This document shows, piece after piece, positions 12,894 to 44,676 of a stretch of DNA of 64,000 bases. Location: assembly GCA_049670505.1 (NCBI GenBank), contig JBATTK010000133.1, forward strand, positions 4,681 through 68,680, given 5' to 3'. The notes beneath the pieces were generated by a model. It was not told the DNA's origin. It did no database searches and saw only the letters and a program-made list of their open reading frames with translations. This DNA comes from Saonia sp. (GTDB taxonomy: Bacteria > Bacteroidota > Bacteroidia > Flavobacteriales > Flavobacteriaceae). Both the position numbers and the translations under genes were made by a program. Within the stretch, counting starts at the first letter, position 1. Each line of letters opens with the position of its first letter.

Positions 12894-12938
12894 ACAAGGC
12901 TATAAAAAGAAAATTAATATAAATTAAAAAATTCGGTT

Positions 12939-17675: not shown

Positions 17676-19049
17676 ATGAAGCGTAATACTATTGAATATG
17701 AACCTAAATTTAAGTATGTGAATAATAAAATAGTACAGAACAATCTAGACTATACGCTATTCTCTTGGGCAAAACAAGGGGGACTAAACCCTATAAATGC
17801 GCATCGTGCCAAGGGGTGTTATATTTTTGATCGGGAAGGAAAAAAATACCTGGACTTCTCCTCACAGTTGATGAATGTTAATATTGGACATGGCAATCAG
17901 CGTATCACGACGGCAGTAGCAAAGCAAATGGAAGATCTGAGTTACGTATATCCTGGCATGGCTACCGAAGTCAGAGGTGTTCTGGGAAAGAAAATCGCTG
18001 AGATTACACCGGGAAACCTTACCAAGACTTTTTTTACACTTGGAGGTGCAGAGGCGGTAGAGAATGCCATTAAACTAGCTCGGATATATTCCAAAAGGCA
18101 CAAAATTATTGGTCATTATCGTTCGTATCATGGAGCCACTTACGGGGCTATGTCCGCAGGGGGAGATCCCCGGAAGTTTGCTATGGATGATCAGGCCGTA
18201 AATAATTTTGTCCATGTGGAGAACCCTTATTTCTATAGATGCCCTTGGAATTCCGCTACTTTGGAAGAATGTGGGGAACGAGCTGCGGCCCATTTGGAAA
18301 GGGTCATACAATTTGAAAATCCGGATGCGATCGCGGCCATTTTGTTCGAGGGGGAATCCGGCTCTTCGGGATGCATAAAGTATCCTCCGATGTACCTTAA
18401 AAAAGTTCGAAAAATCTGTGACCGATATGGCATACTGCTGATTATAGACGAAACCATGAGTGGTTTTGGAAGGACAGGAAAAATGTTCGGTATAGACCAT
18501 CACGAAGTAAGTCCGGATATCATGTGTATGGCCAAGGGCCTAACCTCGGGCTACCTTCCCTTGGGAGCTATGACCGTTACAGATACCATCGCCGATCATT
18601 TTAACGATCATCCAATGCTTTTAGGGCTTACCTATTCCGCCCATCCGGTTTCCTGTGCCGCTGCCATAGAAAATATAAAGATTATAGAAGAGGAGGATTT
18701 GGCAAATAGGGCGGCCCAAACCGGAAAATACATAGAAGAAGAGGTAGAAAAATTAAAAGAAAGACATCCGTCAATAGGCGATTTTAGGAATACAGGTTTG
18801 CTAGGTTGTATTGAGCTGGTTAAAAACAGAAAAACCAAAGAACCTACAACACCATGGAATGCCAAGCCAAATCAGATGGAGGCAACCCTTAAAATGGCAT
18901 CTAAAATCAGGGAATTGGGGATGTTTACATTTGTGAGATGGAATTGGATTTTTATTGCACCTCCCCTAAATGTTAGTACCGATGAAGTCGATGAAGGCCT
19001 TGGAATCGTTTCACAAGCTGTTGCCATTGCCGATCAATATTGCAATTGA
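17676..19049 (+). CDS. class-III PLP aminotransferase (probable beta-alanine / beta-aminoisobutyrate transaminase)
   Basis: Motifs DETMSGFGRTGKMFG and MAKGLTSGYLPLGA. 457 aa. Substrate is inferred from operon context only. Confidence 0.8.
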   Translation: MKRNTIEYEPKFKYVNNKIVQNNLDYTLFSWAKQGGLNPINAHRAKGCYIFDREGKKYLDFSSQLMNVNIGHGNQRITTAVAKQMEDLSYVYPGMATEVRGVLGKKIAEITPGNLTKTFFTLGGAEAVENAIKLARIYSKRHKIIGHYRSYHGATYGAMSAGGDPRKFAMDDQAVNNFVHVENPYFYRCPWNSATLEECGERAAAHLERVIQFENPDAIAAILFEGESGSSGCIKYPPMYLKKVRKICDRYGILLIIDETMSGFGRTGKMFGIDHHEVSPDIMCMAKGLTSGYLPLGAMTVTDTIADHFNDHPMLLGLTYSAHPVSCAAAIENIKIIEEEDLANRAAQTGKYIEEEVEKLKERHPSIGDFRNTGLLGCIELVKNRKTKEPTTPWNAKPNQMEATLKMASKIRELGMFTFVRWNWIFIAPPLNVSTDEVDEGLGIVSQAVAIADQYCN

Positions 19050-29185: not shown

Positions 29186-30208
29186 ATGAATGAGAACCTT
29201 GATCCATCGACAGATAAATTTTCACAAGAAGAGCTCGATATAGAAAGGGCCTTGCGTCCTATAACCTTTGATGATTTTACGGGACAGGAACAGGTTTTGG
29301 AAAACCTTCAAGTGTTCGTGCAAGCTGCAAATTTAAGGGGCGAAGCATTGGATCATACTTTGTTTCACGGCCCTCCAGGGCTTGGTAAGACTACCTTGGC
29401 CCATATCTTGGCCAATGAGTTGGATGTTGGCATCAAAATAACCTCTGGTCCCGTATTGGATAAACCAGGAGACTTGGCCGGACTGTTGACCAATTTGGAG
29501 GAGCGGGATGTTTTGTTTATAGATGAGATTCATCGCTTAAGCCCTATCGTAGAGGAATACTTGTATTCCGCTATGGAGGATTATAAGATCGATATTATGA
29601 TCGAGACCGGTCCGAATGCGCGGTCCGTGCAGATCAATCTAAATCCGTTTACCCTAATAGGGGCCACAACCCGTTCCGGATTGTTGACTTCCCCCATGCG
29701 GGCACGTTTTGGTATACAAAGCAGACTGCAATATTATTCAACGGAGTTATTGTCAACTATTGTCGAGCGCAGTGCCGAAATCCTGAAAGTACCCATCACT
29801 CAAGAGGCTGCTATTGAGATAGCCGGAAGAAGTAGGGGAACCCCAAGAATTTGTAATGCACTTTTAAGGCGTGTTAGGGATTTTGCCCAGATTAAGGGAA
29901 ATGGCAATATAGATATAGAAATTTCCAAGTTTGGATTAAGGGCATTAAATGTAGATGCCCATGGGCTGGACGAGATGGATAACAAGATTTTAAGTACGAT
30001 TATTGATAAGTTTAAAGGTGGCCCCGTTGGTATTACTACCGTAGCTACGGCGGTCTCTGAAAGTGCCGAGACCATAGAAGAGGTTTATGAGCCTTTTTTG
30101 ATACAACAGGGGTTTATTATGCGTACGCCCAGAGGCAGGGAAGTTACCGAATTGGCCTACAAACATTTGGGAAGGATAAAAGGAGGAATACAGGAAGGTT
30201 TGTTTTAA
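29186..30208 (+). CDS. ruvB: Holliday junction branch migration helicase RuvB
   Basis: Walker [18 protein letters not shown], and the C-terminal winged-helix region. 340 aa. Confidence 0.95.
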
Positions 30209-30311
30209 AGGTTCCTATCTTTCCTAGAGGACATATGGGTGGTTTGGTTTTGACAATTAGCAAAGAATTCCCTAAATAGGGACACCTATTATATTTGAAA
30301 GAAATTAGTTG

Positions 30312-31691
30312 ATGAATACCCCCACCACCCTCAAAACGGCGCCGACAAAAAAATCCCCTCCCATGAAAAAACCCTTGGCAACCATTTCACAGTTCACTGT
30401 ATTTAGGAACCGGGATAAGATTCTAAAAGATCCTTTGCCATTCCATAAAGAGAATTTTGAAAAGTACGGGGATACGTTTATAGTCAATATCGGAATGGGC
30501 AATAAGGTCGTCTTTACCAGGAGTGCGGCTTCGGTAAAACATATCCTTCAAAAAAACCACAAAAACTATCATAAATCCACCTTGCAAACAAGGGATTTGG
30601 CCAAATATATCGGTCATGGCCTACTGACTTCCAACGGAGATTTTTGGCGTGCGCATCGCAGAATGGTGCAACCTGCCTTTCATAAAAAGAAGCTAGCCGG
30701 TTTACTGAACATCATGTATGGTGCCATTAAGGCTGAATTACAGGAAGTACAGATCAATACCGAGAAAAATGTTTTCCCTTTGATGAGCGACCTTGCTTTT
30801 CAGGTAGTGGCCAAATCGCTTTTTAGCGCTGGCGATATCAGAGAACGTATGCGAAAGCTTCAGGGCATTACGGTCACCAACCAAAAGATGCTGATCAAAG
30901 AAACGCGCCAACCCTATTTAAAATGGTGGTTCCAATTATCGGGAGATATTGACCGACATCTGGGACTTTCCAAAGAGGCCCAGGATTTGTTGGACCATAT
31001 CATTCAAGAACGGGTTACATCTGAAGAAGAAAAAGACGATTTGTTGGATATGTTGCTCAAAGCCCGTTATGAAGATGGTTCGCCTATGTCTAGAAAGCAA
31101 CTCATAGACGAAGTGATGATACTCTTTACGGCCGGTCATGAGACTACCGCGAATACCTTGAGTTTTACATTGTTCTTGTTGGCGAAAAACCCGGAAGTAC
31201 AGGAAAAGTTGTTTGAAGAGGTCAAGGATATCTATTTTGATACATCTGATATCATGCCCCTATTGGGCAAATTGCCCTATACCAAACAATGTATAGAAGA
31301 ATCCATGCGACTATACCCTCCGGTCTATATCATAGATAGGGTAAGTTTGGCCAGTGATACCGTAGCGGGGCACGACTTTAAAAAGCGAACGGTTTGGCTA
31401 ATGAGTATTTTTGAGCTGCATAGACATAAAGAGTTTTGGGAAAACCCGTTACAGTTTATGCCGGAACGCTTTAGTCCCGAAAATAAAAAGGACTTTTCCG
31501 ATTATTACTTTCCCTTTGGCGCGGGCCCCCGAATGTGTGTGGGCAATAATTTTGCAATGTACGAGATGATTATAGTAGTGGCGACATTGATAAAAAAGTA
31601 TCGTATTTCAAGCTCCAAGGAAGCTGTGGAGATAAATCCGTTGATTTCTTTAAAACCAAAGACTGTCCCCCTAAAATTTATAGAGCGGTAG
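30312..31691 (+). CDS. cytochrome P450
   Basis: Haem-binding loop FPFGAGPRMCVGNNFA, EXXR (ESMRLYPP), and I-helix AGHETTA. The start is uncertain (ATG 30312 or 30360). Confidence 0.9.
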   Translation: MNTPTTLKTAPTKKSPPMKKPLATISQFTVFRNRDKILKDPLPFHKENFEKYGDTFIVNIGMGNKVVFTRSAASVKHILQKNHKNYHKSTLQTRDLAKYIGHGLLTSNGDFWRAHRRMVQPAFHKKKLAGLLNIMYGAIKAELQEVQINTEKNVFPLMSDLAFQVVAKSLFSAGDIRERMRKLQGITVTNQKMLIKETRQPYLKWWFQLSGDIDRHLGLSKEAQDLLDHIIQERVTSEEEKDDLLDMLLKARYEDGSPMSRKQLIDEVMILFTAGHETTANTLSFTLFLLAKNPEVQEKLFEEVKDIYFDTSDIMPLLGKLPYTKQCIEESMRLYPPVYIIDRVSLASDTVAGHDFKKRTVWLMSIFELHRHKEFWENPLQFMPERFSPENKKDFSDYYFPFGAGPRMCVGNNFAMYEMIIVVATLIKKYRISSSKEAVEINPLISLKPKTVPLKFIER

Positions 31692-31707
31692 ATAAACCCA
31701 AAAACAG

Positions 31708-31744
31708 TGAACCATTTTTACTACAATTTGAACCAAAAGTTCGA
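31708..31744. promoter_or_regulatory. degenerate copy of the TGAAY half-site array upstream of the first regulator paralog
   Basis: Reads tgaac-cattt-ttacta-caatt-tgaac-caaaa-gttcga. The 11-nt half-site spacing matches the sites at 35182 and 38515. Confidence 0.35.
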
Positions 31745-31820
31745 TTTTCCTACCACATTATGCGTATATTTATGATAATCAGAATATTAATGAGTTAAAA
31801 GTACAATTTTAAGCTTTTGT

Positions 31821-32927
31821 ATGCCGATTTACATGGATTCACATATTGTTCCCGGGGTCGAGGCCAAACATGCTGCTGAAGCACATAAAAAGGACCTTGG
31901 CATCCAGAATCAATTTGGTTGTAGAAATATGACCTATTGGATCGATGAAGATAGGGGAAGGGTCTTTTGTTTGATTGATGCTCCTAACGAGGAAGCTGTG
32001 AGAGAGATGCATAACCATTCCCATGGGTTGGTGCCCCATGAAATCATTCCGGTAAACAGTAAAGTTGTCGAAGCCTTTTTGGGAAGGATAGATGATCCGG
32101 AACCATACGTGGATCCAAAGGACCCCGAACTTAAAATATTTAACGATCCAGCTTTTAGGGTCATTTTAGCGATAAAGACAAAAGACGCAGGACTGCTACG
32201 CTATAATCTAGGGGAAAATAGGGCAAAGCATTTGTTTTCACTTTATTATGATACGGTCAGGGAACAAATCGAAAAATATGAGGGGAGCGAAGTAGAAATA
32301 AAGGGGATAGGTTTTGTAGTTTCTTTTGCCTCCGTTTCCATGGGGGTAGAGTGCGCCGTTGCCATCCAAAAAGCCCTACATGTAGCTGCGGAACTTATTG
32401 ATCTGCGGATGGGTCTGCACGCAGGTCTACCGGTAGATCAAAGCGACACCCTTTTTGGTAAAACGGTACAATTGGCCCGTTACCTTTGCTCTATTGGTAG
32501 GGAAAATCAGATTGTTATGTCCGCTATAGTCAGCGAACTTAATAATCCCGTTCCTTCAAAAAACAAGACATATCAGGACGGTATTAAAAGATTAAATGTC
32601 ACTGAAGAAAAATCACTTGCACTTTTCGTTGATATTTTGGACAAGAGTTGGCAGAATCCTGAGTTTGGAATTAATGACTTCTGCTATAAATTATCCATTA
32701 GCAAATCACAGCTATATAGAAAATGTAAAGGTATTACAGGAAAATCGCCCAATGCCCTTTTACGTGAATATCGATTGATTAGATCTCTGGAACTGTTAGG
32801 GAAAAAAGGATACAACGTTTCCCAGACCACCTTTGAGGCAGGATTTAACAGCCCTTCCTATTTCATCAAGTGCTTTCAACAAAGGTTTGGACTATTGCCT
32901 TTGAGTTATGCCAAATTGCAGACTTAA
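31821..32927 (+). CDS. one-component regulator: DUF4242-like N-domain + degenerate cyclase-homology domain + AraC-type HTH (paralog 1)
   Basis: N-terminus MPIYMDSH..YWIDEDRGRVFCLIDAPNEEA..HG. Middle region FRVILAIK..IGFVVSFAS..LRMGLHAGLPV..LFGKTVQLARYL. C-terminal AraC HTH (..GFNSPSYFIKCFQQRFG..). Confidence 0.75.
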   Translation: MPIYMDSHIVPGVEAKHAAEAHKKDLGIQNQFGCRNMTYWIDEDRGRVFCLIDAPNEEAVREMHNHSHGLVPHEIIPVNSKVVEAFLGRIDDPEPYVDPKDPELKIFNDPAFRVILAIKTKDAGLLRYNLGENRAKHLFSLYYDTVREQIEKYEGSEVEIKGIGFVVSFASVSMGVECAVAIQKALHVAAELIDLRMGLHAGLPVDQSDTLFGKTVQLARYLCSIGRENQIVMSAIVSELNNPVPSKNKTYQDGIKRLNVTEEKSLALFVDILDKSWQNPEFGINDFCYKLSISKSQLYRKCKGITGKSPNALLREYRLIRSLELLGKKGYNVSQTTFEAGFNSPSYFIKCFQQRFGLLPLSYAKLQT

Positions 32928-32948
32928 AAATTTAAATTGATAAACATC

Positions 32949-34022
32949 ATGCCACTTTATATGGATATACATATGGTTGATTCTGAAAACTTTACAGTTG
33001 AAGATGTAATAAAGGCGCATATGGGGGACATTGCTGTACAAGAGAAGTATGGTGTCTTACAGAGAAAATACTGGGTCAATGAACAGGACAAAATGGTATT
33101 CTGTTTGATGGAAGGGCCTAATAAAGAGGCATGCCATGCCACCCACGAAGAAGCTCATGGTATGACAGCATGCAATATAATAGAGGTATCGGAAGATGAG
33201 TATAATTTATTTATGTCCAAAAGTAGTACTAAAGAAAATGATTTAGCCTATACCCTGGATGGTGAGTTAGACGCAGGCTTTAGAACTATAATGCTGGTTA
33301 GCACTTCTGATCTTTCGGGTAAATATGGACACTATACCAATGAAATACACCGATTAATAAAACAATTCAATGGCGTAATGGTACTTCAGCCCAATGATGA
33401 GATTACGGTCTCTTTTCTCTTGGCTTCGGATGCTATTTTATGTGCTTTGGCAATAACCAAACTTTTAAAATCCATTCCTGACAATTTTGAATTCAGACTT
33501 GCTCTGGTCAGTGGAAATCCAGTGGATAAATATGGAACCGATTTATTTGAAGACACCAAACGGAAGGTAAAAATCCTATGCCAGATAGGACTGAGCAAGG
33601 TTATATATCTCGATGCCACCACGAAAGCCTTGTCGAAGAAGGAAGTCAATACTCCGAAAATGAACCATAGTGATATCAAAATAGTAGGGAACAACGATTT
33701 CTTATTGTGTGAAAAACTATCCCATATTCTAAATTTCGAATCGACTAATCCTAATTTTACAAGTGTGGAACTTGGAAATCAATTGGGCCTGAGCAAGGCT
33801 CAGACCTATCGAAAGATAAAATTGCTTACGGGCATGTCGCCCAACACGTTGATTCGAGAGCTTCGACTTCGCAAATCTTTAAAAGCCTTAAAAAAAAATA
33901 ACAAAACAGTAGCCGAAATAGCCTATGAACTAGGGTTTAATAGTCCTACCTATTTTACGCGGGTGTTCCGGAATAGATATGAAGTCCTCCCCACTTCCTT
34001 TGCCAAACTTTGCAGCTCATGA
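32949..34022 (+). CDS. DUF4242-like + degenerate cyclase-homology + AraC HTH regulator (paralog 2)
   Basis: MPLYMDIH start at ATG 32949 (the listed TTG 32937 is unlikely). Same three-part architecture. Cys/His-rich N-domain (FCL, EACHATHEEAHG, CNIIEV). Confidence 0.75.
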   Translation: MPLYMDIHMVDSENFTVEDVIKAHMGDIAVQEKYGVLQRKYWVNEQDKMVFCLMEGPNKEACHATHEEAHGMTACNIIEVSEDEYNLFMSKSSTKENDLAYTLDGELDAGFRTIMLVSTSDLSGKYGHYTNEIHRLIKQFNGVMVLQPNDEITVSFLLASDAILCALAITKLLKSIPDNFEFRLALVSGNPVDKYGTDLFEDTKRKVKILCQIGLSKVIYLDATTKALSKKEVNTPKMNHSDIKIVGNNDFLLCEKLSHILNFESTNPNFTSVELGNQLGLSKAQTYRKIKLLTGMSPNTLIRELRLRKSLKALKKNNKTVAEIAYELGFNSPTYFTRVFRNRYEVLPTSFAKLCSS

Positions 34023-34046
34023 TTTACACAATAAAAGTATAGTACG

Positions 34047-35168
34047 ATGCCTTTGTACATGGACATACACGTTATGGATTCAATTCCTATTACGGAAGAA
34101 GATGCCTATAAGTCACACTTAAGGGATTTAGCCGTGCAGGACAAATATGGTTTGATATATAAAAAATACTACATCAATTTTCAGCACAACACAATTTTTT
34201 GCCTAATGGATGGTCCTAGTAAGGAAGCCTGTCTAATTAGCCACGAAGCTGCACATGGCATTGGTCCGTGTAATATTGTTGAAGTATCGCCAGAATTTGA
34301 ATTTCATCCTTATTTGGGCGAAGGAACCAAAAATGATAAAGATCTTGCCCTTACCCTTTCTGGGGAAATAGACACTGGCTATCGTACATTAATGATGATT
34401 TGCCTGGCCGATTTTACAGGCAATTACGGATACTTAACTGATGAAATTTATCGATTGATACAAGTATACCACGGCAATAAGGTTATGCAGCCGGACGATA
34501 AATTCATAGCTTCTTTTCTGAACGCCTCCGATGCTATTTCATGTAGTATAGAGATATCACACTTGTTGAATAGCATCCCCAATAACATCGAATATAACAT
34601 GGCACTGGTGACCGGAAAACCAGTTGATGAAGTAGGATCTACCTTTTTTGGGGAGGCCAGAAAACGTCTACGGACACTTTGCCGGATCGGTCTGAGTAAA
34701 CTGATTTATATTGATGCCGGTACAAGGGCACTTATTCAAAAAGAAACGAATACTTCCGAAATAGACAAGAAAAATCTAAAATTCATATCCAAGAACGATT
34801 TTTCATTTTTAATGACACTGTACGAAATTCTTGATAGTCAAATTTTGAATTCCAATTTTAAAAGTGAAGACCTAAGTAAAGAATTGGGCTTGAGCAAATC
34901 ACAGACTTATCGAAAAATAAGGTCCCTTATCGGTATGTCCCCAAATACGTTAATACGGGAAATGCGTTTGCGACGTTCTCTCGGTGCCCTGAAAAAAAAC
35001 AGTAAAACAGTTGCGGAGATAGCTTATGATCTTGGGTTTAATAGCCCCACTTATTTTACAAGGGTCTTTAGAAGCAGATACAATACGCTCCCGACCAATT
35101 TTGCCAAACTTTCCCTAAAAAATGATGTGCTTAAGACAAATGAATCAAATGGTTCATCATTTGATTAA
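34047..35168 (+). CDS. DUF4242-like + degenerate cyclase-homology + AraC HTH regulator (paralog 3)
   Basis: MPLYMDIH.., EACLISHEAAHG..CNIVEV, and a C-terminal HTH nearly identical to paralog 2 (KTVAEIAY.LGFNSPTYFTRVFR.RY). Confidence 0.75.
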   Translation: MPLYMDIHVMDSIPITEEDAYKSHLRDLAVQDKYGLIYKKYYINFQHNTIFCLMDGPSKEACLISHEAAHGIGPCNIVEVSPEFEFHPYLGEGTKNDKDLALTLSGEIDTGYRTLMMICLADFTGNYGYLTDEIYRLIQVYHGNKVMQPDDKFIASFLNASDAISCSIEISHLLNSIPNNIEYNMALVTGKPVDEVGSTFFGEARKRLRTLCRIGLSKLIYIDAGTRALIQKETNTSEIDKKNLKFISKNDFSFLMTLYEILDSQILNSNFKSEDLSKELGLSKSQTYRKIRSLIGMSPNTLIREMRLRRSLGALKKNSKTVAEIAYDLGFNSPTYFTRVFRSRYNTLPTNFAKLSLKNDVLKTNESNGSSFD

Positions 35169-35181
35169 AAAGGTACATCTT

Positions 35182-35208
35182 TGAACCAATTGTTTCAATC
35201 TTTGAAAT
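35182..35208. promoter_or_regulatory. 27-nt composite inverted repeat TGAAC-N5-GTTTCA-N5-TGAAAT (candidate operator)
   Basis: Read directly. 21 of 27 positions are identical to the site at 38515-38541. Lies about 190 nt upstream of the 35399 ATG. Confidence 0.55.
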
Positions 35209-35398
35209 AAAACTTACATTTTTTTAAAGAAACCCACCCTAATTTTACAGTAGAAATTTCCAAGTACTTTGGCTAAAGTCAATTCGTAATACTCCCCCAA
35301 AATAGTTTTAAATAGAGACGGACATGCGATGTTCCGTAGGGACTTTGCTGTCAAAATTTGGGCATGTCAAATAGTAAAATGGACGTAATAAAAGAATA

Positions 35399-36445
35399 AT
35401 GAACACAAGTGGTCAACACAGATCGGTACAGGGAACCAAGGGACTAATTTGGCGGATTTGGGTACTCTTTGTTTTTATGCTATTAGTTTCAAGTATTTTG
35501 CTGTTAGCTTGTTTTGATAGTATACCCAAAAAATATATGGGAGACAATTTGATTAAGGATGTATATGCAATTAATTATGATGTTTCCCTATTGGATAATT
35601 CTGTGGAAAACAAAGAAATAAAATACGGTTATGAGGTGTTCAGGAAGACCCCAAAATATCTGGGGCCTAACAATGGGAATCCCGATATGGCCTATGCCGG
35701 AAACCGCTTGTCCTGTAACAACTGCCATTTGTGGTCTGGCACAAAACCCTATTCGGCTCCGTTAATAGGCATCATACAGCGATTCCCCCAATATAGAGGT
35801 AGGGAAAATAAGATGGGAACTATTGAGGAGCGCATCAATGGTTGTATGGAGCGTAGTATGAACGGCAGAATGATGCCGACGGATAGTAAAGAAATGAAGG
35901 CCATGGTTGCCTATCTAAATTGGTTAAGCCGATCTGCCCCTAAAGACGGGAAGATAAAAGGTCAGGGATTTGTAAAGATTGAAATTCCCGCGAGGGCGGT
36001 TAATCTAGAAAATGGAAAAAAGATTTTTAAATCCAACTGCATAGTATGTCATGGCAATAATGGACAAGGGGTAAAATCAACGGATGGTTTTACCTACCAA
36101 TACCCACCGCTCTGGGGAGATGATTCCTATAACAACGGGGCGGGAATGACCCGTGTGATTACAGCTGCACGATTCATCAAGGCAAACATGCCTTACGGTG
36201 CAACTTATGAAACTCCAATATTGACGGATGAAGAGGCCTATGACGTGGCAGGCTATATTAATCAGCAATTACGTTCCAAAAAAAGAAATTCAGAAAGGGA
36301 TTTTCCGGACCTAAAGAAAAAACCGGTCTCGACGCCCTATCCCCCCTATGCCGATACTTTTTCTATACAACAGCACCAATTAGGGCCCTTTCAACCTATT
36401 ATGGAATACTATAAAAATAAATTCAATATCGTTAAATCTAAGTAA
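35399..36445 (+). CDS. membrane-anchored dihaem cytochrome c, TsdA/SoxA-like (thiosulfate dehydrogenase family)
   Basis: Two haem sites (CNNCH, CIVCH). The blocks FPQYRGRENKMGTIEERINGCMERSMNG..MKAMVAYLNWLS and PPLWG..SYNNGAGM..AARFIKANMP resemble TsdA. Confidence 0.7.
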   Translation: MNTSGQHRSVQGTKGLIWRIWVLFVFMLLVSSILLLACFDSIPKKYMGDNLIKDVYAINYDVSLLDNSVENKEIKYGYEVFRKTPKYLGPNNGNPDMAYAGNRLSCNNCHLWSGTKPYSAPLIGIIQRFPQYRGRENKMGTIEERINGCMERSMNGRMMPTDSKEMKAMVAYLNWLSRSAPKDGKIKGQGFVKIEIPARAVNLENGKKIFKSNCIVCHGNNGQGVKSTDGFTYQYPPLWGDDSYNNGAGMTRVITAARFIKANMPYGATYETPILTDEEAYDVAGYINQQLRSKKRNSERDFPDLKKKPVSTPYPPYADTFSIQQHQLGPFQPIMEYYKNKFNIVKSK

Positions 36446-36451
36446 ATTATT

Positions 36452-37132
36452 ATGGAAACAAAGAACAGCAATTCAAGAAGAAAGTTTATGGGGGCGGTAG
36501 CACTCGGTTTAACCGCAAGTACCATTTCGGTAGTGACAAATCCTGTATACGCAAGTTTACCTTCCTTTGATGATGAAAAGATGGGTGAGGCAGACGATTG
36601 GTTCAAGAAAATAAAGGGCAAACACCGTATTGTCTATGATGGTTCTACGCCCCATGACGGTTTTCCCGTTATCTGGAACTGGGCCTTTTATCTGACCAAC
36701 AATGAAACGGGATCTAAGGATGATGATATTACGGCCATGACGGTCTTACGACACAACGCCATTCCTTTTGCCTTAAAATCGGAAGTGTGGAAAAAATACA
36801 AACTTGGTGAGGTTTTCGGGGTAACCGACAATGCAACCAAAGCCCCTTCTTTGCGCAATCCATATTATGAACCTAGGGAGGGAGATTTCCCCATGCCCGT
36901 GATTCAAGGGATAAAGGACTTACAGCAAAGGGGTGCACTATTCTGTGTTTGTGATCTGGCAATAAAAGTATATAGCGGGGCAGTAGCGCAAAAAATGAAC
37001 TTGGATGCTAAGCAAGTCTATGGGGAATGGATAAATGCTATCCATCCAGGAATACAATTGGTGCCATCTGGAGTGTGGGCTTTGGGTAGGGCACAAGAGA
37101 ATAACTGTGGTTATGTTTTTGCAGGGAACTAA
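36452..37132 (+). CDS. Tat-exported protein of unknown function (possibly DsrE-fold-like)
   Basis: Twin-arginine leader SRRKFMGAVALGL. The conserved GALFCVCDLA segment is reminiscent of DsrE-type proteins. The functional call is weak. Confidence 0.4.
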   Translation: METKNSNSRRKFMGAVALGLTASTISVVTNPVYASLPSFDDEKMGEADDWFKKIKGKHRIVYDGSTPHDGFPVIWNWAFYLTNNETGSKDDDITAMTVLRHNAIPFALKSEVWKKYKLGEVFGVTDNATKAPSLRNPYYEPREGDFPMPVIQGIKDLQQRGALFCVCDLAIKVYSGAVAQKMNLDAKQVYGEWINAIHPGIQLVPSGVWALGRAQENNCGYVFAGN

Positions 37133-37154
37133 TTAAAATCGTAAAGCAATAATT

Positions 37155-37568
37155 ATGAGAAAATATATCATTTTAGTTTTTGCACTATTCGGTACTTCGT
37201 GGATCCAAGCTCAAGAAGGTCCTATAAAAGTTGTATTCGATGTAACTAGTGACAAGACCGCTGTACATGGCGCCACAATAAGACACGTAAAATATATGTC
37301 CGAGGAATATCCAGACTCCAAATTTGAGGTAGTCATGTATAGCGGGGCCTATGATATGGTAAACAGGAACAAGTCCACGGTTGCTTCCGATATGGAAAAA
37401 CTGGCAAAAAGGAGAAACGTATCTTTCGTTGTTTGCAAGGCTACTATTGATAGGCATAATATAACGGCTTCCGATCTTGTTCCGGGTGTAACGACCGTAC
37501 CCAATGGCATTTATGAAATCTTTACAAAACAAAAAGAAGGCTGGGGATATATAAAGGAAGGGCAATAA
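37155..37568 (+). CDS. secreted DsrE/DsrF-like family protein
   Basis: Signal peptide, 137 aa. The KVVFDVTSD..FEVVMYSGAYDMV..VSFVVCKATI pattern matches small DsrE-like (COG1416-type) proteins. Confidence 0.6.
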   Translation: MRKYIILVFALFGTSWIQAQEGPIKVVFDVTSDKTAVHGATIRHVKYMSEEYPDSKFEVVMYSGAYDMVNRNKSTVASDMEKLAKRRNVSFVVCKATIDRHNITASDLVPGVTTVPNGIYEIFTKQKEGWGYIKEGQ

Positions 37569-37614
37569 CCGTCCTTCCTTTTACATCATCTAGAAATAAA
37601 GTATACAAAGCAAA

Positions 37615-38412
37615 ATGGAGACGCTACAAATTTTTGGTTATCTAGGAGCGTTGGCGGTAGGTATGATATTGGGATTGATGGGAAGCGGTGGATCTATGAT
37701 GGCCGTTCCTATTTTAGCCTATCTATTTCACATCAGTCCCGTTACAACAACCGCTTATTCCCTATTCGTAGTAGGTACATCCGCTTCGGTGGGTGCCTTT
37801 CGGAACTATAAAAAAGGAATGGTAGATTTCAGAATCGCTATTGTTTTTGCCATTCCCGCCTTTATTACTGTTTATATAGTGCGAAAGTTTTTAGTGCCTA
37901 TCATTCCGGAAAAGATTTTCGCTATAGGAAGTTTTATAGTAACAAAGGATATAGGCATCATGGTACTTTTCGCCATGCTCATGCTTTGTGCCTCGATTTC
38001 GATGATTAAAAAAAGAAAAAAGAAAATCGATATTATATCCGTTACCGACTACAACTACCCCACTATAGTTTTGGAAGGTATTCTGATAGGCATCTTAACA
38101 GGAATTGTTGGAATAGGAGGGGGATTTTTAATTATTCCCGCCTTGGTTTTGTTGGTAAAACTTCCTATGAAGAAAGCGGTAGGCACTTCCCTGTTCATTA
38201 TTGCCTTAAAATCGTTGATCGGGTTTATGGGGGATTTAGGTAATCTCGAAATAAATTGGTCATTTCTATTGAGTTTTACTATGGTTTCAATGCTTGGAAT
38301 ACTCTTTGGAGTTTATCTCTCTTCCTTTATCGAGGGTGAAAAACTCAAAAAGACCTTTGGCTGGCTGGTATTGGTAATGGCAATATTTATTTTCTATAAG
38401 GAACTACTGTAA
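37615..38412 (+). CDS. TauE/SafE-family sulfite/organosulfonate exporter
   Basis: Duplicated 4-TM repeats with GSGGS.. and GIGGGFLIIPAL motifs. 265 aa. Confidence 0.8.
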   Translation: METLQIFGYLGALAVGMILGLMGSGGSMMAVPILAYLFHISPVTTTAYSLFVVGTSASVGAFRNYKKGMVDFRIAIVFAIPAFITVYIVRKFLVPIIPEKIFAIGSFIVTKDIGIMVLFAMLMLCASISMIKKRKKKIDIISVTDYNYPTIVLEGILIGILTGIVGIGGGFLIIPALVLLVKLPMKKAVGTSLFIIALKSLIGFMGDLGNLEINWSFLLSFTMVSMLGILFGVYLSSFIEGEKLKKTFGWLVLVMAIFIFYKELL

Positions 38413-38514
38413 GGACAAATACTCTAATAGTAATTGGGCCACGATTGATCCAATGGTAAAGTAATGTATGAACCTGACCATTTTGTTATAAGATTCACTC
38501 ATTTAAATTAATTT

Positions 38515-38541
38515 GTGAATCAAATGTTTCAGGATTTGAAA
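38515..38541. promoter_or_regulatory. 27-nt composite inverted repeat TGAAT-N5-GTTTCA-N5-TGAAAC (candidate operator)
   Basis: Read directly. GTTTCA-N5-TGAAAC is a perfect inverted repeat. An additional GATTCAC-N16-GTGAATC inverted repeat spans 38491-38520. Confidence 0.55.
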
Positions 38542-38699
38542 CAAATCTTCTATTTTTTGGGAAGTACAAGTTGTACCTTTAAAGTAGCAGGTTATATCTA
38601 CATAGACTGTTCAAAAACTTCCCCTAATATATAGGTTGTGAAAACCTATCATTAATTTGATGGGCAGTAATGACTTTGCTCATCATAAACTTGGGGATT

Positions 38700-39584
38700 A
38701 TGAAAACATTACAACAAATATATTTTCTAATAGGATTCTTTATGTCGCTAACACTATTATCCTGTGGACCCTCCGATTCGGAACGGGATAAACACGACAT
38801 CGTGGAGGTGTTAAAAAGCGAGACCGAAACCTTTGTGCAAGGGAATTTTGACCTATGGGCGAATCATTGGAAACAAAGTTCCGATGTTCTATTTACCTAC
38901 ACCGCCAACAATGAGACTAATTTTGCGATAGGCTGGGAAAAATTAAGCGGGCTTATGAAGCAGCATATGGATACCGGAGTCGATTTGGAATATCCGGATT
39001 TTTCACGCGATTACCATACAATTAGGGTAGAGGGTAATATGGCTTGGGCACATTTTACACAAATCGATACCTTGGATGGCAAACCGACCCAAAAACACGA
39101 ATCACGAACTTTGGAGCGAGTCAATGGCGATTGGAAAATTATAGGGGCCAATATTGTGAACCAAACCTCCTTTGCTTCAAATCAATATTTGCTTAATGCC
39201 AAAGAGGTACATGGTGAGACCCATATTTCTTTGGAAGAATTTCCAAAAGGGATGATCATAAATCATGTGGAAGGTTGGGGCGGAATGACCGTTGCCATCA
39301 ATGAACCTCCTGCCGGTACCGATTTTACCCCCTTGTTGGAAGGATTGGAAAACAACAGTTGCCAAGTGCCCCATTGGGGCTATTTGGAAAAAGGAGCCAT
39401 ACGTATGAAATATGACGATGGCAAAGAGGAAGTGCTAAAAGCAGGCGAGGTTTTTTATATGCCCCCGGGGCATACTGGAGTCGTTGAAAAAGATGTGCGC
39501 TTAATTGACTTTAGCCCCCAACAGGAGTTCAAGGAAGTGGTGCATCATATTGAGGAGAAAGTAGCGGCAATGCAAAAACAATAA
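38700..39584 (+). CDS. lipoprotein with an NTF2/SnoaL-like N-domain and a cupin-like C-domain
   Basis: ATG 38700 gives the lipobox signal MKTLQQIYFLIGFFMSLTLLSC. DUF4440/SnoaL-like WANHW..GDWKIIG. Cupin-like C-terminal region (..VFYMPPGHTGV..). Confidence 0.55.
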   Translation: MKTLQQIYFLIGFFMSLTLLSCGPSDSERDKHDIVEVLKSETETFVQGNFDLWANHWKQSSDVLFTYTANNETNFAIGWEKLSGLMKQHMDTGVDLEYPDFSRDYHTIRVEGNMAWAHFTQIDTLDGKPTQKHESRTLERVNGDWKIIGANIVNQTSFASNQYLLNAKEVHGETHISLEEFPKGMIINHVEGWGGMTVAINEPPAGTDFTPLLEGLENNSCQVPHWGYLEKGAIRMKYDDGKEEVLKAGEVFYMPPGHTGVVEKDVRLIDFSPQQEFKEVVHHIEEKVAAMQKQ

Positions 39585-39604
39585 TCAAATAAAATACGGA
39601 TTGA

Positions 39605-40978
39605 ATGGAAACAAAAATTAATGAACTGAACAACAAAGTAAAAGGCGAAATCATCCTTCCCAGTGATGAAAACTACCATGAGGCCCGGAAAATATACAAC
39701 GCCATGATCGATAAGCATCCTGCTATCATCTTCAAATGCCTGGATAAAGATGATGTAATCCAGGCCGTGAATTTTGCCAGAGAGAATAATTTGGAAGTGG
39801 CGATCAGAAGCGGTGGTCACAATGGGGCGGGACTTGCCCTTGTAAATGATGGTCTGGTCATAGACCTTTCGGAAATGAAGTCTATACAGATTGATCCAGA
39901 TACCCAAATGGCAAAAATACAGCCGGGCAATACCTTGAGGGATGTAGACAAGGCTACCCACGAACATGGTCTGGCACTGCCTGTTGGTATAAACGGCACA
40001 ACGGGCGTAGCGGGGCTGACATTAGGTGGGGGATTGGGCTATCTAAGCCGTAAAGGCGGGCTGGCTATCGACAACTTATTGGAGGCCGAAGTGGTTTTGG
40101 CCTCGGGAGAATCGGTCATCGCCAATGAAACCAGTCACCCCGATCTATTTTGGGCCCTACGGGGAGGCGGTGGTAATTTTGGGGTAGTGGTTTCTTTTAC
40201 TTTTAATCTGATCCCCGTAAAGAATGTCTACGCCGGACCCATGTTCTGGCCCATAGAACAGGCTGAAGAGGCTATGAAGTTCTATGATAGTATCACCGAA
40301 AATGCGACTAACGACCTATACGGTTTTTTTGCCTTTTTGATCGTTCCGCCCGGAGATCCTTTTCCGAAACACCTTCATATGAAAAGAGTTTGCGGAGTGG
40401 TCTGGTGTTATACGGGACCTATAAAAAAGGCGGAAGAAGTATTTAGGCCCATACGGGAGTTTGGCCCCCCAATTCTTGATTTTGTGGGCGAAATGCCCAT
40501 GCCTTCACTTAACGGACTGTTCGATGAACTCTATCCGCCAGGTCTGCAATGGTACTGGAAGGCACATTACATCAATGAGTTATCGGAGGAGTGTATACAG
40601 GAGAACATCAAACATGGTTCCAATACCCCCTCTGTACACTCTACCATGCATTTGTATCCCATTGACGGAAAGGTCCATGAAATAGCACAGTCAGCTACAG
40701 CTTGGGCCAATAGGGGTGCACGCTGGGCACAGGTCATAGTAGGGGTAGATCCCGATCCGGCCAATGCGGAAAAAATCACCAAATGGTGTAGGGACTATCA
40801 TGCGGCAATGGAACCCTATGCAGCCGGTGGCGGTTACGTAAACTTTATGATGGAAGAAGGGCAAGAGCCTGTAAAAGCAGGGTATAAAGGGAATTATAAT
40901 CGATTGGCAAAAATTAAAAAGAAATACGACCCCGATAATTTCTTTCATGTGAACCAAAACATTCTACCTTCAAAATAA
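39605..40978 (+). CDS. FAD-binding oxidoreductase, berberine-bridge-enzyme (BBE/VAO) type
   Basis: FAD-binding PCMH region (IRSGGHN), and a C-terminal BBE motif YVNF..NY.RL.KIKKKYDPDNFFHVNQNI. Confidence 0.85.
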   Translation: METKINELNNKVKGEIILPSDENYHEARKIYNAMIDKHPAIIFKCLDKDDVIQAVNFARENNLEVAIRSGGHNGAGLALVNDGLVIDLSEMKSIQIDPDTQMAKIQPGNTLRDVDKATHEHGLALPVGINGTTGVAGLTLGGGLGYLSRKGGLAIDNLLEAEVVLASGESVIANETSHPDLFWALRGGGGNFGVVVSFTFNLIPVKNVYAGPMFWPIEQAEEAMKFYDSITENATNDLYGFFAFLIVPPGDPFPKHLHMKRVCGVVWCYTGPIKKAEEVFRPIREFGPPILDFVGEMPMPSLNGLFDELYPPGLQWYWKAHYINELSEECIQENIKHGSNTPSVHSTMHLYPIDGKVHEIAQSATAWANRGARWAQVIVGVDPDPANAEKITKWCRDYHAAMEPYAAGGGYVNFMMEEGQEPVKAGYKGNYNRLAKIKKKYDPDNFFHVNQNILPSK

Positions 40979-41006
40979 GAAAGCGTATCATATAGAATTA
41001 AAAAAG

Positions 41007-41513
41007 CGATTCGCGAGGTGTGAATTCCTAAAAAAATCAGGGGCCTTGGCCGCTCTCTCCACCATTATGTAGCGCAGCTCAGGGATTTTAAAAGTGCCTA
41101 TAACCAATGATGCCGCAATTGAAATTGCAGGAAGAAGCCAGGGAACTCCAAGAATCTGCAATGCGCTTTTGCGTAGGGTAAGGGATTTTGTCCAGATAAA
41201 AGGAAACGGAAAAATTGATATGGATATTTCCAGATTTGGATTATAGGCCTTGAACGTTGATGCCTATGGGCTGGATGAGATGGACAATAAGATTCTGAGC
41301 ACACTGATCGATAAATTTAAGGGCGGCCCCGTTGGTATTACCACGATTGTTATAACTGTTTCTGAAAGTGCCGAAACCATTAAAGAGGTTTATGAGCCTT
41401 TTTTGATACAATAGGGGTTTATTATGCGTACACCCAGAGGCAGGAAAGTTACCGAATTGGCTTATAAACACTTGGGTAGGATAAAAGGAGGCGCGCAACC
41501 AGGACTATTTTAA
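41007..41513 (+). pseudogene. ruvB: decayed copy of the 3' half of ruvB
   Basis: Translates collinearly with RuvB residues about 174-340 (..[70 protein letters not shown]). In-frame stops at 41070, 41244 and 41412. No 5' half is present. Confidence 0.85.
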
Positions 41514-41728
41514 TAAATAGTTCTTCCCGTTTTTCTAAAGAATTTCAAAAGATAGGCCACATATTACTGAATACGGTGCAATGACAATTAGTTGTCCAAT
41601 GGTATCGGACATCCAATAAAGTGGGATTATTTTACCAACGTTTGATGTAATTTTTCTACCTTAAAGGAAATTTCTCCCCTTTCTTTGTAGCGTAAAACTA
41701 GTTCCCTCCTAATTAAAAAAATATCATT

Positions 41729-42820
41729 ATGCCTTATTTTATGGATTTGCATGTGGTTCCGGGAATAACGCCAGAGATGGTTGCGGCTGCTCATAAGGAA
41801 GATATTAGAGTACAAGATGAGTTTGGCTGTAGATGCGCTACGTATTGGGTAGATGTAGAAAGAGAACGGGCTTTTTGTCTTATTGAGGCACCAAATAGGG
41901 AAGCAATCAATAAAATGCACAGAAAATCGCTTGGTGTCGAACCACTTGAGGTTATAGAGGTTTCAGAAGCTGCAGTGACTTCTTTTTTGGGAAGAATTAA
42001 AGATCCAGATACTTTTTATACCGAAGGTAAGAGCGATTTGAAAATATTCAATGATCCGGCTTTTCGGATAATTTTGGTTACAGATAGCTATCATAATAGG
42101 CTTCTTGAACTAAAACTTGGTAAAATAGAAGCAAAAAAACTTCTTTCTGAATATAGGTCAACTATTAAGTCCGCTATAAAAAACAGCAAAGGAAAGGAGG
42201 TTAAGGGCGAAGAATTTGTTGTTTCGTTTACCTCGGTTTTTAAGGCTGTTGAATGTGCCTTGTCCATTAAGAATAAAACGCAGTCAATTTCAAAACAATT
42301 GAACCTTAAAATTTCTCTTCATGCAGGTCTACCGATAGCAAAAGATAAATCTTTGTTCGGCGAGGTCGTAAATTTTGCTCGGTTTTTTGGTAATTCCGGT
42401 GCTGGAGAACAAATTATAATGTCGCCTATTATTCGAGAATTGTACAAAAAAGAGTACGAGAATTTAATGAAGGAGAAGGGAGTTAAATGCATGAATTCTT
42501 CTGAAGAAAATTTTGCTAAACAATTGATGCAAACACTACATAAGAATTGGCAAAATTCTGAGTTTGCGATTACAGATTTCTGCAAATCGATGTCGATGAG
42601 CAAATCGCAATTCTTTCGTAGAAGTAAATCGATAACCGGGAAATCTCCAAATGTCTTGTTACAAGAATTCCGGCTACATAAAGCGCTACAATTATTGAAT
42701 GAACCCGATCGAAATATTTCCCAAACCGCTTTTGATAGTGGTTTTAATAGCCTTTCCTACTTTACTAAGTGCTTTAGAAAGCATTTTGGTATCCAACCGA
42801 CCGCTTTTTTGAAAGGATAA
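41729..42820 (+). CDS. DUF4242-like + degenerate cyclase-homology + AraC HTH regulator (paralog 4, closest to paralog 1)
   Basis: MPYFMDLHVVPG..FGCRCATYWVDVERERAFCLIEAPN..FLGRIKDP..LKIFNDPAFRIIL.. and a C-terminal AraC HTH. Confidence 0.75.
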   Translation: MPYFMDLHVVPGITPEMVAAAHKEDIRVQDEFGCRCATYWVDVERERAFCLIEAPNREAINKMHRKSLGVEPLEVIEVSEAAVTSFLGRIKDPDTFYTEGKSDLKIFNDPAFRIILVTDSYHNRLLELKLGKIEAKKLLSEYRSTIKSAIKNSKGKEVKGEEFVVSFTSVFKAVECALSIKNKTQSISKQLNLKISLHAGLPIAKDKSLFGEVVNFARFFGNSGAGEQIIMSPIIRELYKKEYENLMKEKGVKCMNSSEENFAKQLMQTLHKNWQNSEFAITDFCKSMSMSKSQFFRRSKSITGKSPNVLLQEFRLHKALQLLNEPDRNISQTAFDSGFNSLSYFTKCFRKHFGIQPTAFLKG

Positions 42821-42863
42821 TTATCTTCTTGGTCATTTTTTACCAGCTTTTGGAATTAATGTA

Positions 42864-42895
42864 AAAGCCACCTTAAAAAAGTGGCTTTACTTTTA
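42864..42895 (+). terminator. rho-independent terminator after regulator paralog 4
   Basis: AAAGCCAC / GTGGCTTT 8-bp stem with a 9-nt loop, followed by a T-rich tail. Confidence 0.65.
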
Positions 42896-42987
42896 ATATG
42901 TCTTAAAATTCTAATTTTCAGACTTTTATTTGTACCCCTCCCCCGAGCAAACATGAATAGATTATTAACCATTAAACATTTTATATT

Positions 42988-43716
42988 ATGAAAAGTACAC
43001 AAAGGAAACTACCGTATTTATTGTTTATTTTAGCGATTATGTTTAGTTCATGTGCTAAGGATGGGGAAGACGGGGCCATAGGCCCACCAGGTCCACAAGG
43101 AGAGCAGGGCTTACCGGGAATGGATGGTGCTGATGGTCAAGACGGCGCAGATACCCCTGGGCTATTAATCTCTACTTCTGAAATAATAAACGCTGTCACA
43201 GGTGCTGTTTTGGGCAAATCAACACTTTACCGAGAAGAAAATGGAATTTTTGTCAACTACGAAGTAAGTGGTCTAGAGCCAAATTATGCATACACACTAT
43301 GGTGGACGGTTTGGAACCAACCACAAAACTGTATCGTGCCTGGAGAATGTGGGTTGGCTGATTTTGAAAATGCGATTGAGGTAGAAGTAGAGCTTATGAA
43401 TGCTTCGGGCGGCATCATCGGTGAAGACGGTGCGGCCACATTTACGTCCTATCTTGATGAAAATGACAATTCGGGATCTATCAATGAAGATATTTTTGGA
43501 ATACCAACTTTTAATGGGCTCCAAAATGCAATAGAAGCCCAAGTGACCGTGGTATTAAGAAGTCATGGGCCTGTGGTGCCTGAATTGGTTGCCGAGCAAA
43601 TTAACTCACATCAAGGTGGTTGCACCAATAATTTTGCTCCCTTTAGCGAAATACCAGATGCTGAGGGAGAATGTGGGGACATTATTTTTGCCATTCATAG
43701 CCCAGGAGCTAACTAA
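42988..43716 (+). CDS. lipoprotein with a collagen-like Gly-X-Y repeat and a C-terminal domain of unknown function
   Basis: Lipobox MFSSC. Ten uninterrupted GXY triplets (GEDGAIGPPGPQGEQGLPGMDGADGQDGAD). Confidence 0.7.
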   Translation: MKSTQRKLPYLLFILAIMFSSCAKDGEDGAIGPPGPQGEQGLPGMDGADGQDGADTPGLLISTSEIINAVTGAVLGKSTLYREENGIFVNYEVSGLEPNYAYTLWWTVWNQPQNCIVPGECGLADFENAIEVEVELMNASGGIIGEDGAATFTSYLDENDNSGSINEDIFGIPTFNGLQNAIEAQVTVVLRSHGPVVPELVAEQINSHQGGCTNNFAPFSEIPDAEGECGDIIFAIHSPGAN

Positions 43717-43755
43717 AAATGCATCCTTATTTGGAATTAGCTTTATCTTTAGTGT

Positions 43756-44676
43756 ATGAATGAAAAAAATCATGCACAGAAAATAAAAACCGAAGCCAAA
43801 CGCCTCGGTTTTTTGTCCTGTGGTATTTCCAAGGCCGATTTTCTTGAAGAGGAAGCACCCCGATTGGAAAAATGGCTCTCCAACAAGATGCATGGAGAAA
43901 TGGGCTACATGGAAAATCATTTTGACAAGCGTTTAGATCCACGTTTGTTAGTAGATAGTGCCAAGTCCGTTATTTCGCTCTTGCTGAACTATTATCCCGA
44001 AGAAGAGCAGTCGCCTGACACCTATAAGCTGTCCAAATATGCTTACGGACAAGATTACCATCATGTCATTAAATCCAAATTAAGGAAACTTCAAGAATTT
44101 GTTTCCGAAGAAATTGGAGAAGTCAACGGGCGTGCCTTTGTGGATTCTGCCCCTGTATTGGATAAGGCTTGGGCCGCAAAAAGCGGCTTGGGCTGGATGG
44201 GCAAACACAGTAACTTATTGACACAACAAGTGGGGTCCTTTTATTTTATTGCAGAACTTATTGTGGATCTGGAATTAGAATATGATACACCCGTCACGGA
44301 TCACTGCGGTACCTGTACGGCTTGTATAGATGCTTGCCCCACCCAGGCCATTGTGGAGCCCTATGTAGTGGATGGCAGTAAATGTATTTCCTATTTTACC
44401 ATCGAATTAAAAAATGAGATACCAACGGATGTAAAGGGAAAGTTCAACGATTGGATGTTCGGATGCGATATCTGCCAAGATGTATGTCCTTGGAACCGTT
44501 TTTCCAAATCCCATAACGAACCTTTGTTCCAGCCCCATCCAGAACTACTTTCCATGACCAAAAAGGACTGGGAAGAGATTACGACCGATGTGTTTAAGAA
44601 AGTCTTCCAAAAGTCGGCGGTAAAGCGAACCAAGTTTTCCGGTTTACAACGTAATGTACGGTTTTTGAACGATTGA
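43756..44676 (+). CDS. queG: tRNA epoxyqueuosine(34) reductase
   Basis: Fe-S motifs [13 protein letters not shown] and [12 protein letters not shown], and CISYFTIE. 306 aa. Confidence 0.9.

Follow-up and report, generated by a model that had tools for sequence, protein, structure and literature searches.

The question raised by this locus is how a genome with an intact ruvB gene came to hold a second, broken copy of the 3' part of the same gene, and which of the two copies is at home there. The locus was studied in a 64,000-nucleotide stretch of a Saonia sp. contig (JBATTK010000133.1, positions 4,681 to 68,680), the whole of which is called the window here. The ruvB fragment lies 11 kb downstream of intact ruvB, on the same strand and collinear with it. 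The original prediction, made from the sequence alone, was that a 10.8-kb accessory insert had entered ruvB, supplied a replacement 3' half and pushed the resident one downstream. The comparisons described below, made with contigs and loci that were fetched for the analysis and are labelled L001, L012, L085 etc., reverse this polarity. They indicate a resident intact gene and a fragment that is most likely a foreign-origin (xenologous) pseudogene, given its homology and disabling mutations, a divergence of the kind produced under purifying selection, and its closer similarity to the gene of another lineage. The argument turns on the following features:

29186-30208, + strand: intact ruvB, resident, encoding 340 aa (Pfam RuvB_N, AAA_lid_4 and RuvB_C)
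29750-30208, + strand: the portion of ruvB homologous to the fragment, codons 189-340 plus the stop codon (gap-free alignment with 41055-41513)
41055-41513, + strand: ruvB 3' pseudogene fragment, most likely foreign, codons 189-340 plus the stop codon, 459 bp (homology and in-frame stops)
30050-30175, shared with 41355-41480, + strand: probable gene-conversion tract of about 125 bp (raised identity between the copies)

The second copy is real. Blastn aligned it to intact ruvB with 79.5% identity over 434 bp, with 0 gaps and E=5.5e-110, on the same strand, and the in-frame stops were found at the three reported positions, 41070, 41244 and 41412. The estimate that the copies differ at about one base in five agrees with this identity, which was 77.9% when taken across the 456 coding bases. 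The homology continues gap-free as far as a stop codon common to both copies. Of the extent first given to the fragment (41007-41513, residues 174-340), the end was therefore correct but the start was not, as homology begins only at 41055, which corresponds to residue 189 and to position 29750 of ruvB; the 48 bases 5' of 41055 showed no alignment to the ruvB of the window or of its relatives. No 5' half of ruvB accompanies the fragment, and no in-frame start codon was found upstream of its homology. With three in-frame stops and homology from codon 189 only, it is a dead copy, as had been claimed. No further ruvB piece was present in any other ruvB locus examined. An Rfam scan of 28-46 kb of the window matched no family, and in the scan around the ruvB fragment no terminator was detected and the promoter-like matches were weak. 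Over 28.4-34.3 kb an independent Logan assembly (L001) was 100% identical; the fragment lies outside its reach.

The differences between the two copies are distributed over the codon in a way that bears directly on their history. Over the 456 coding bases they number 21, 9 and 71 at the first, second and third codon positions, respectively, and the comparison of the intact gene with the fragment by the Nei-Gojobori method (NG86) gave a nonsynonymous divergence (dN) of 0.090, a synonymous divergence (dS) of 1.61 and a dN/dS of 0.056. A truncated copy that was free of selection from birth would be expected to show an even spread over the codon positions, and this was not observed. The 21/9/71 pattern together with the low dN/dS implies that nearly all of the divergence arose inside working ruvB genes in different lineages, and both copies are thus seen, by these substitution measures, to have had long functional histories. 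An old partial duplication, named in the original prediction as the alternative, is excluded by the same two measures, whereas the statement that the duplication is not a recent one holds, with a dS between the copies of about 1.6.

The changes acquired by the fragment after its inactivation could be separated from this older divergence. There are 24 amino-acid differences between the copies, half of which are ordinary polymorphisms among 205 orthologs; at the other 12, the states found in the fragment, three stops included, are absent from the 205 orthologs, and most of them fall at invariant or nearly invariant sites. Conservation was also tested by column. Among 89 functional ruvB genes, 205 nucleotide columns reach a conservation of 97% or more, and at these the fragment carries 7 changes, compared with a mean of 0.6 in functional ruvB genes. 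Drift of the fragment since inactivation may be put at about 3.4%, which is minor beside the saturated synonymous divergence. All 7 of the conserved-column changes (41140-41445) are GC->AT transitions; they provide a small but clean sample of how neutral mutation is biased in this genome. The GC content at third codon positions (GC3) was uninformative, being 0.414 in the fragment and 0.395 in the intact 3' part.

The polarity of the event, i.e. which copy is the resident one, was obtained neither from dS against relatives, which failed because of saturation (dS >2 or not computable), nor from whole-segment amino-acid distances to the 205 orthologs, which left it undecided, the protein being too conserved. 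It was decided after the relatives closest by ACOX (the neighbouring acyl-CoA oxidase gene) had been added and nucleotide ranks had been taken outside the conversion tract. By ACOX the closest relative is L088 (89%), a contig that has ACOX, ruvB and a P450 gene, and L089, L090 and L012 stand at 83-84% to the window. The backbone of the window is collinear with the latter three, from an amidohydrolase gene to ACOX and ruvB on one side, and through queG, an SSF transporter gene, malic enzyme, ruvA and sprA on the other. Compared with L088, the 5' and 3' parts of intact ruvB scored 0.805 and 0.807, respectively, and the similarity was flat along the gene in sliding windows, so that intact ruvB is not a chimera of resident 5' and imported 3' parts. 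In a nucleotide ranking of 88 ruvB orthologs, for which the 3' comparisons were made outside the tract, L088 came first for each part of the intact gene, the value being 0.811 for the 5' part and 0.791 for the 3' part. For the fragment, L088 came 23rd, and the best matches were L085 (0.767) and, level with L040, L086 (0.764). Despite its decay, the fragment scored higher with L085 and L086 than with the intact copy in its own genome (0.733). Both of these loci had been retrieved via homology to reg4 (83% and 80%), the regulator gene next to the fragment, and not via RuvB.

Individual residues point in the same direction. The combination S197, L272, I286 and P337 found in the fragment occurs elsewhere only in L085 and L086, among 208 RuvB sequences. 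The intact copy carries E337, which marks the native clade, and the fragment has P337. At 12 informative residues L088 equals the intact copy at 8 and the fragment at 1. In a site bootstrap with fragment-specific sites masked, 97.8% of replicates had the intact 3' part, rather than the fragment, as the nearer of the two to the native clade. By these nucleotide and residue comparisons intact ruvB is resident over its full length and the fragment is nearest to L085/L086, and the originally proposed displacement of a resident 3' half by an imported replacement has its polarity reversed, since the intact 3' part ranks L088 first and the fragment ranks it 23rd. With moderate confidence, the fragment can be regarded as a foreign piece that shares ancestry with reg4 and has an affinity to the donor lineage.

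One part of the fragment departs from this general pattern. The identity of the copies rises to 89.7% between 30050-30175 and 41355-41480, compared with 73.3% outside the tract, and in 90-nt windows across it their identity with each other tops the best value of either copy with any of 87 orthologs. Gene conversion between resident ruvB and the fragment probably took place here. The tract resembles L088, which makes gene to fragment the probable direction.

The DNA on both sides of the fragment was considered next to it, and includes these features:

40979-41054, + strand: junction filler, 76 bp, from the stop codon of the BBE gene to the start of the ruvB homology; site of the non-homologous left join
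41616-41728, + strand: conserved region upstream of reg4, promoter/operator-like (conserved in the window, L085, L086 and L087)
41729-42820, + strand: reg4, a regulator with SCO4226-like and AraC-HTH parts (Pfam)
42988-43716, + strand: coll, collagen-like, 242 aa (the order reg4-coll is also found in L014, L086 and L087)
43756-44676, + strand: queG, resident right flank of the slot (Pfam; collinear with L089, L090 and L012)

The distance from the ruvB fragment to reg4 is 215 bp, and orthologs of reg4 in L086 and L087 (80-85%) stand directly 3' of an intact ruvB; in L085, a P450 gene stands between ruvB and reg4. When the spacers between ruvB and reg4 were aligned for the window, L086 and L087, conservation was limited to the reg4-proximal part, where about 50 nt match strongly. 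This motif of about 50 nt (41616-41664, TATTTTACCAACGTTTGAT.TAATTTTTCTACCTTAA) shows a conservation of about 90% among the window, L085, L086 and L087, whether ruvB, the ruvB fragment or a P450 gene lies upstream, and is likely to be reg4's own promoter or operator. In composition, reg4 and coll have the lowest GC3 in the window (0.319 and 0.337, compared with 0.40-0.47 for core genes), and the 4-mer profile of 41007-43755 correlates with that of the core at 0.857, compared with 0.904 +/- 0.020 for core controls of the same size, i.e. 2.3 standard deviations below. A comparison with the flanks had been suggested for 30209-41006; there, the genes from P450 to BBE have a GC3 within or near the core range. 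From this layout and composition, reg4 probably came together with the ruvB fragment.

At the left junction the homology on the BBE side ends at the BBE stop codon and the ruvB homology starts 76 bp further on, and by these alignments the junction is non-homologous. The filler between them (40979-41054) showed no alignment to the DNA downstream of BBE in L091-L096, nor to ruvB, and neither the filler nor the DNA just past the fragment had a blastn match in any fetched locus. The filler contains a perfect 10-nt palindrome, GGCCTTGGCC (41042-41051), four bases left of the start of the ruvB homology. Neither ruvB nor queG gave a mosaic signal against relatives, which are distant and saturated at synonymous sites. 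The best-fitting insertion would extend from 41055 to about 43750 and comprise the fragment, reg4 and perhaps coll.

If this is the imported segment, the 10.8 kb to its left would not belong to it. The genes there are:

30309-31691, + strand: cytochrome P450 (Pfam)
31821-35168, + strand: reg1, reg2 and reg3, SCO4226-like/AraC regulators (Pfam)
35399-40978, + strand: SoxA/TsdA-type cytochrome c, a 226-aa protein, DsrE-like protein, TauE, cupin and BBE-type FAD oxidase (Pfam)

Ten open reading frames (ORFs) were counted in 30209-41006, one fewer than the 11 non-core genes of the original prediction; the 226-aa protein has no Pfam match and the match of the cupin is weak. The predicted absence of integrase, transposase and tRNA from this stretch was upheld by Pfam scans of its 10 ORFs and by a tRNA search, which found none in the whole window. 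No integrase or transposase domain was detected in any of the scanned ORFs, i.e. the 10 ORFs mentioned, the flanking genes and unassigned ORFs, the syntenic housekeeping ORFs with clear orthologs being left out of the scan. The stretch cannot be taken as one accessory insert, because a P450 gene starts less than 700 bp past the ruvB stop codon in 42 of 89 Flavobacteriaceae loci, L088 included, and because L100 has the order ruvB-P450-regulator-BBE-queG-malic enzyme-ruvA-sprA. The order in L099 is ruvB-P450-regulator-BBE, that in L014 is ruvB-reg4-like-coll-queG, and that in both L086 and L087 is ruvB-reg4-...-coll. In 71 loci ruvB and queG are on the same strand within 10 kb, with gaps from 2 bp to 7.8 kb and a median of 1.3 kb, and the 13.5 kb of the window is the largest. 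Across these intervals P450, regulators, coll and BBE come and go in varying combinations. The ruvB-queG interval is a variable slot between core genes, without a recombinase gene here, mobility genes having been checked for in the window only.

Part of the content of the slot is kept together elsewhere, as the genes for cytochrome c, the 226-aa protein, DsrE, TauE and BBE recur in the metagenome contigs L091, L092 and L096 at 70-81%, without the cupin. In the window the cupin gene (38670-39584) lies between TauE and BBE, and L092 has a cupin-like piece past BBE. Among the regulators, reg1-3 are 30-55% identical pairwise, and reg1 and reg4 are 46% identical. The identity of reg1 and reg4 to regulators of L085 (found at L085:10001-11095 and 13544-14659) is 80% and 83%, and the housekeeping genes of this contig are more distant or merely similar (ACOX 76%, RuvB 89%, P450 65%); SCO4226-like/AraC regulators seem to pass between lineages. 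In L089 (7112-7477) and L090 (5455-5820), the nearest relatives whose full context is available, a stand-alone SCO4226-like protein of 121 aa is encoded in the slot beside one SCO4226-like/AraC regulator, and hence the SCO4226-like sensor domain also exists unfused at the ruvB-queG locus.

The order of events that would best accommodate these observations is as follows. The starting arrangement would have been ACOX on the minus strand, then ruvB-P450-regulators-sulfur module-cupin-BBE-queG. The donor would have been another flavobacterial lineage, related to L085/L086, in which ruvB was followed directly by reg4, with coll further on. We consider it likely that a segment of this donor, containing the ruvB 3' part, reg4 and perhaps coll, was imported and placed between BBE and queG, its left end being joined illegitimately. 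The imported piece would start mid-ruvB, at codon 189, and carry reg4 and probably coll as well. Having no 5' half, the donor ruvB piece would have had no function, and it would since have drifted by about 3.4%, gaining the three stops and the GC->AT transitions; later, about 125 bp of it would have been homogenised with resident ruvB. As to the joining, our best guess is homology-facilitated illegitimate recombination, with an anchor on the right (coll or the start of queG) and the illegitimate join on the left; two illegitimate joins would be the alternative. These flavobacteria are not known to be naturally transformable. Of the transfer history first proposed, the involvement of horizontal transfer stands, but the insertion into ruvB with replacement of its 3' half does not.

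Several points weigh against this account and need to be set beside it. No homologous anchor was detected on the right, where queG, without any mosaic signal, looks resident from the first codons onward. The coll gene is only 48-51% identical to the genes of L086/L087, although reg4 is 80-85% identical. No close donor was found, the fragment being only about 77% identical to the ruvB of L085/L086, and since synonymous sites are saturated, the donor affinity rests on the ranks and the four residues. The amino-acid bootstrap placed the fragment nearer to L085/L086 than to the native clade in only 72% of replicates, and L087, which has the closest reg4 (85%), does not have the residue signature of the fragment. 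The 205 comparison sequences were picked by similarity to the intact gene, and lineages like that of the fragment are under-sampled among them. The contig of L088 stops inside P450, and no empty site of the same lineage was seen. For the P450 of the window, identity is 78% with the L004 gene (ACOX 78%) but drops to 64% with its L088 counterpart (ACOX 89%). This discordance implies that the left part of the slot was also exchanged and that "resident" is a relative term; from these identities the P450 of the window was probably exchanged too, though the adjoining 3' end of ruvB looks resident.

The first of the other explanations is displacement of the resident 3' end. An incoming ruvB 3' half together with the genes from P450 to BBE would have recombined in resident ruvB, as a site-specific island or by ruvB-anchored illegitimate recombination, and pushed the old 3' half downstream. 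Such an event predicts the layout seen, an intact gene followed by 10.8 kb and a 3' fragment; an illegitimate joint would lie near the anchor, as in the cases described in PMC5361080; the P450 is discordant with that of the closest relative (64% to L088, 78% to L004); and the complete arrangement ruvB-reg4-coll-queG exists in L014, L086 and L087. It is nevertheless unlikely. The intact 3' half is as near to L088 as the 5' half, L088 having rank 1/88 for both and rank 23 for the fragment. The native marker E337 is in the intact copy and P337 in the fragment, the site bootstrap puts the native clade nearer to the intact copy in 97.8% of replicates, a recombinase gene and an identical core at the repeat ends are both lacking, and reg4 and coll, which such a displacement would make resident, have the most atypical GC3 of the window. 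A circular or permuted intermediate, in which a donor segment from the ruvB 3' half to BBE was circularised and entered by a single crossover at a regulator paralog, would bring reg1 to BBE, the fragment and reg4 jointly from a donor like L085. That locus does have reg4 (83%), reg1 (80%), a third regulator and cytochrome c (67%) 3' of ruvB, circularly permuted in order relative to the window, and it is the best nucleotide match of the fragment. We judge this course quite improbable all the same, as the 46% identity of reg1 and reg4 is too low for a homologous crossover, the P450 separates ruvB and reg4 in L085 whereas the fragment is 215 bp from reg4 as in L086/L087, the GC3 from reg1 to BBE is core-like and that of reg4 and coll is not, and BBE adjoins queG in L100 without any fragment.

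The remaining explanations can be given very little weight. It was considered whether a chimeric join in the contig, which belongs to a metagenome-assembled genome (MAG), had brought in a piece of another organism, since the only independent assembly found (L001) stops short of the fragment and exact-protein look-ups of reg4 and BBE gave no other contig. An artefact of this kind is very hard to reconcile with three stops and 7 conserved-column changes, by which the fragment is not the live gene of a neighbouring organism, with the finding that the same relatives are collinear with the slot on either side, at matching identity, or with the 125-bp homogenised tract, which implies that both copies were in one genome; it would also require two joins 2.7 kb apart. 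It is just as improbable that the fragment was formerly a stand-alone gene for the RuvB lid and winged-helix domains, selected until its recent death. The start of the fragment, residue 189, lies five residues inside AAA_lid_4 (184-257), its end coincides exactly with the stop codon, and a low dN/dS is compatible with past selection, but no in-frame start was found upstream, no second RuvB-like match was found in the other ruvB loci examined, and its rare residues are shared with the full-length RuvB of L085 and L086. Duplication of the ruvB 3' half in situ, partial or tandem, with or without downstream genes and followed by decay, is scarcely credible. The copies are on the same strand and collinear, paralogous regulators follow both of them, and a scar of truly in-situ type is known from the P450 gene of L047, with differences of 3/4/5. 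The codon-position pattern of 21/9/71, the dN/dS of 0.056 and the dS of about 1.6 nevertheless contradict a copy that was non-functional from birth, and the fragment is nearer to the ruvB of L085/L086 than to the gene residing with it. Import of a donor segment between BBE and queG is the account retained here.

The scar just mentioned is one of two in the ruvB-queG interval of L047, an unrelated Flavobacteriaceae MAG, which both derive from flanking genes. One is a 185-bp copy of the P450 3' end, 93.5% identical, that follows a collagen-like insert (11618-11802 vs 12855-13039); its differences of 3/4/5 by codon position and its one stop imply that it decayed in place. The other is a 183-bp copy of the hairpin upstream of queG and the first ~23 codons of that gene, 77% identical and 2.9 kb upstream of real queG (15256-15438 vs 18179-18361). 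The ruvB fragment of the window is best read as an ordinary scar of gene transfer, a hitch-hiking donor scrap, of known kinds (a foreign pseudogene, a core-flanked hotspot) and not a new element. A wider proposal, which we regard as speculative and rather doubtful, is that ruvB-queG serves the whole family as a recombinase-free cargo slot, through which modules, often with their own SCO4226-like/AraC regulator, pass between genera together with pieces of flanking genes. Were it true, the scars of ruvB 3' in the window and of P450 3' and queG 5' in L047 would mark recurrent flank-primed insertion, and a candidate process would be chromosomal transfer by a conjugative element, followed by one-sided homologous recombination. 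The significance of the fragment itself is modest, and it opens no long-standing question. It does correct an annotation of the locus as an island inserted into ruvB or as a 10.8-kb accessory insert, and provides a worked example in which the codon-position pattern and ancestry linked to neighbours separate imported from displaced DNA. It also marks ruvB-queG as a variable slot of Flavobacteriaceae, where genes for P450, BBE-type oxidase, the sulfur module and nickel-sensor-like regulators are exchanged without a visible mobile element.

Several known systems resemble this locus in part. The elements e14 and phage 21 in icd of E. coli are integrative elements that target the 3' end of a gene and carry a replacement end. 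As there, a duplicated and diverged 3' end of a housekeeping gene lies beside extra DNA; in contrast to them, the window has no integrase and no identical att core, the repeat is about 460 bp long, and the polarity is opposite. No att-like identical core was found at the repeat boundaries, the repeats starting at 29750 and 41055 in a region of 67% identity, and the longest exact run between the ruvB copies, 29 nt, is internal, at 30078. The description of the locus as an island targeting the ruvB 3' end was therefore abandoned, there being no recombinase gene, no att core and a polarity opposite to that required. C-terminal displacement at rhs and type VI secretion system (T6SS) effector loci (Jackson et al. 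2009; Kirchberger et al. 2017, PMC5361080) likewise leaves an intact gene and then a distant orphan 3' fragment, with foreign cargo involved. In those systems, however, the intact 3' end is the newcomer and the orphan the old resident, which is the reverse of the situation here, and ruvB is a housekeeping gene without a variable 3' domain.

In homology-facilitated illegitimate recombination (de Vries & Wackernagel 2002; Prudhomme et al. 2002; Meier & Wackernagel 2003, as cited in PMC5361080), homology anchors one end and the second end is joined illegitimately; the process has also been seen in conjugation (PMC3240628). The window shares with these cases at least one non-homologous joint, the lack of a recombinase gene and donor DNA from the homologous locus of a relative, and differs from them in that no homologous anchor was detected. 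Hotspots of transfer between core genes that lack mobile-element genes have been described by statistical work within species (Oliveira et al. 2017, PMC5635113). The ruvB-queG interval is similar to these, as both genes are syntenic in 71 loci while the content and length of the interval vary, no integrase, transposase or tRNA is present in the window, and discordant identities indicate exchange among relatives. Unlike that work, the present comparison spans genera of one family, and the evidence from the flank is a physical scar of the donor's flanking gene and not a raised recombination rate.

Two further repeats were noticed in the window. The regulators reg2 and reg3 (33025-34011 vs 34123-35112) are tandem paralogs, 55% identical in amino acids and 64% in nucleotides over about 1 kb. 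Further downstream, two genes with a TonB_C domain share a stretch of 181 bp with 72% identity (58919-59099 vs 60070-60250).

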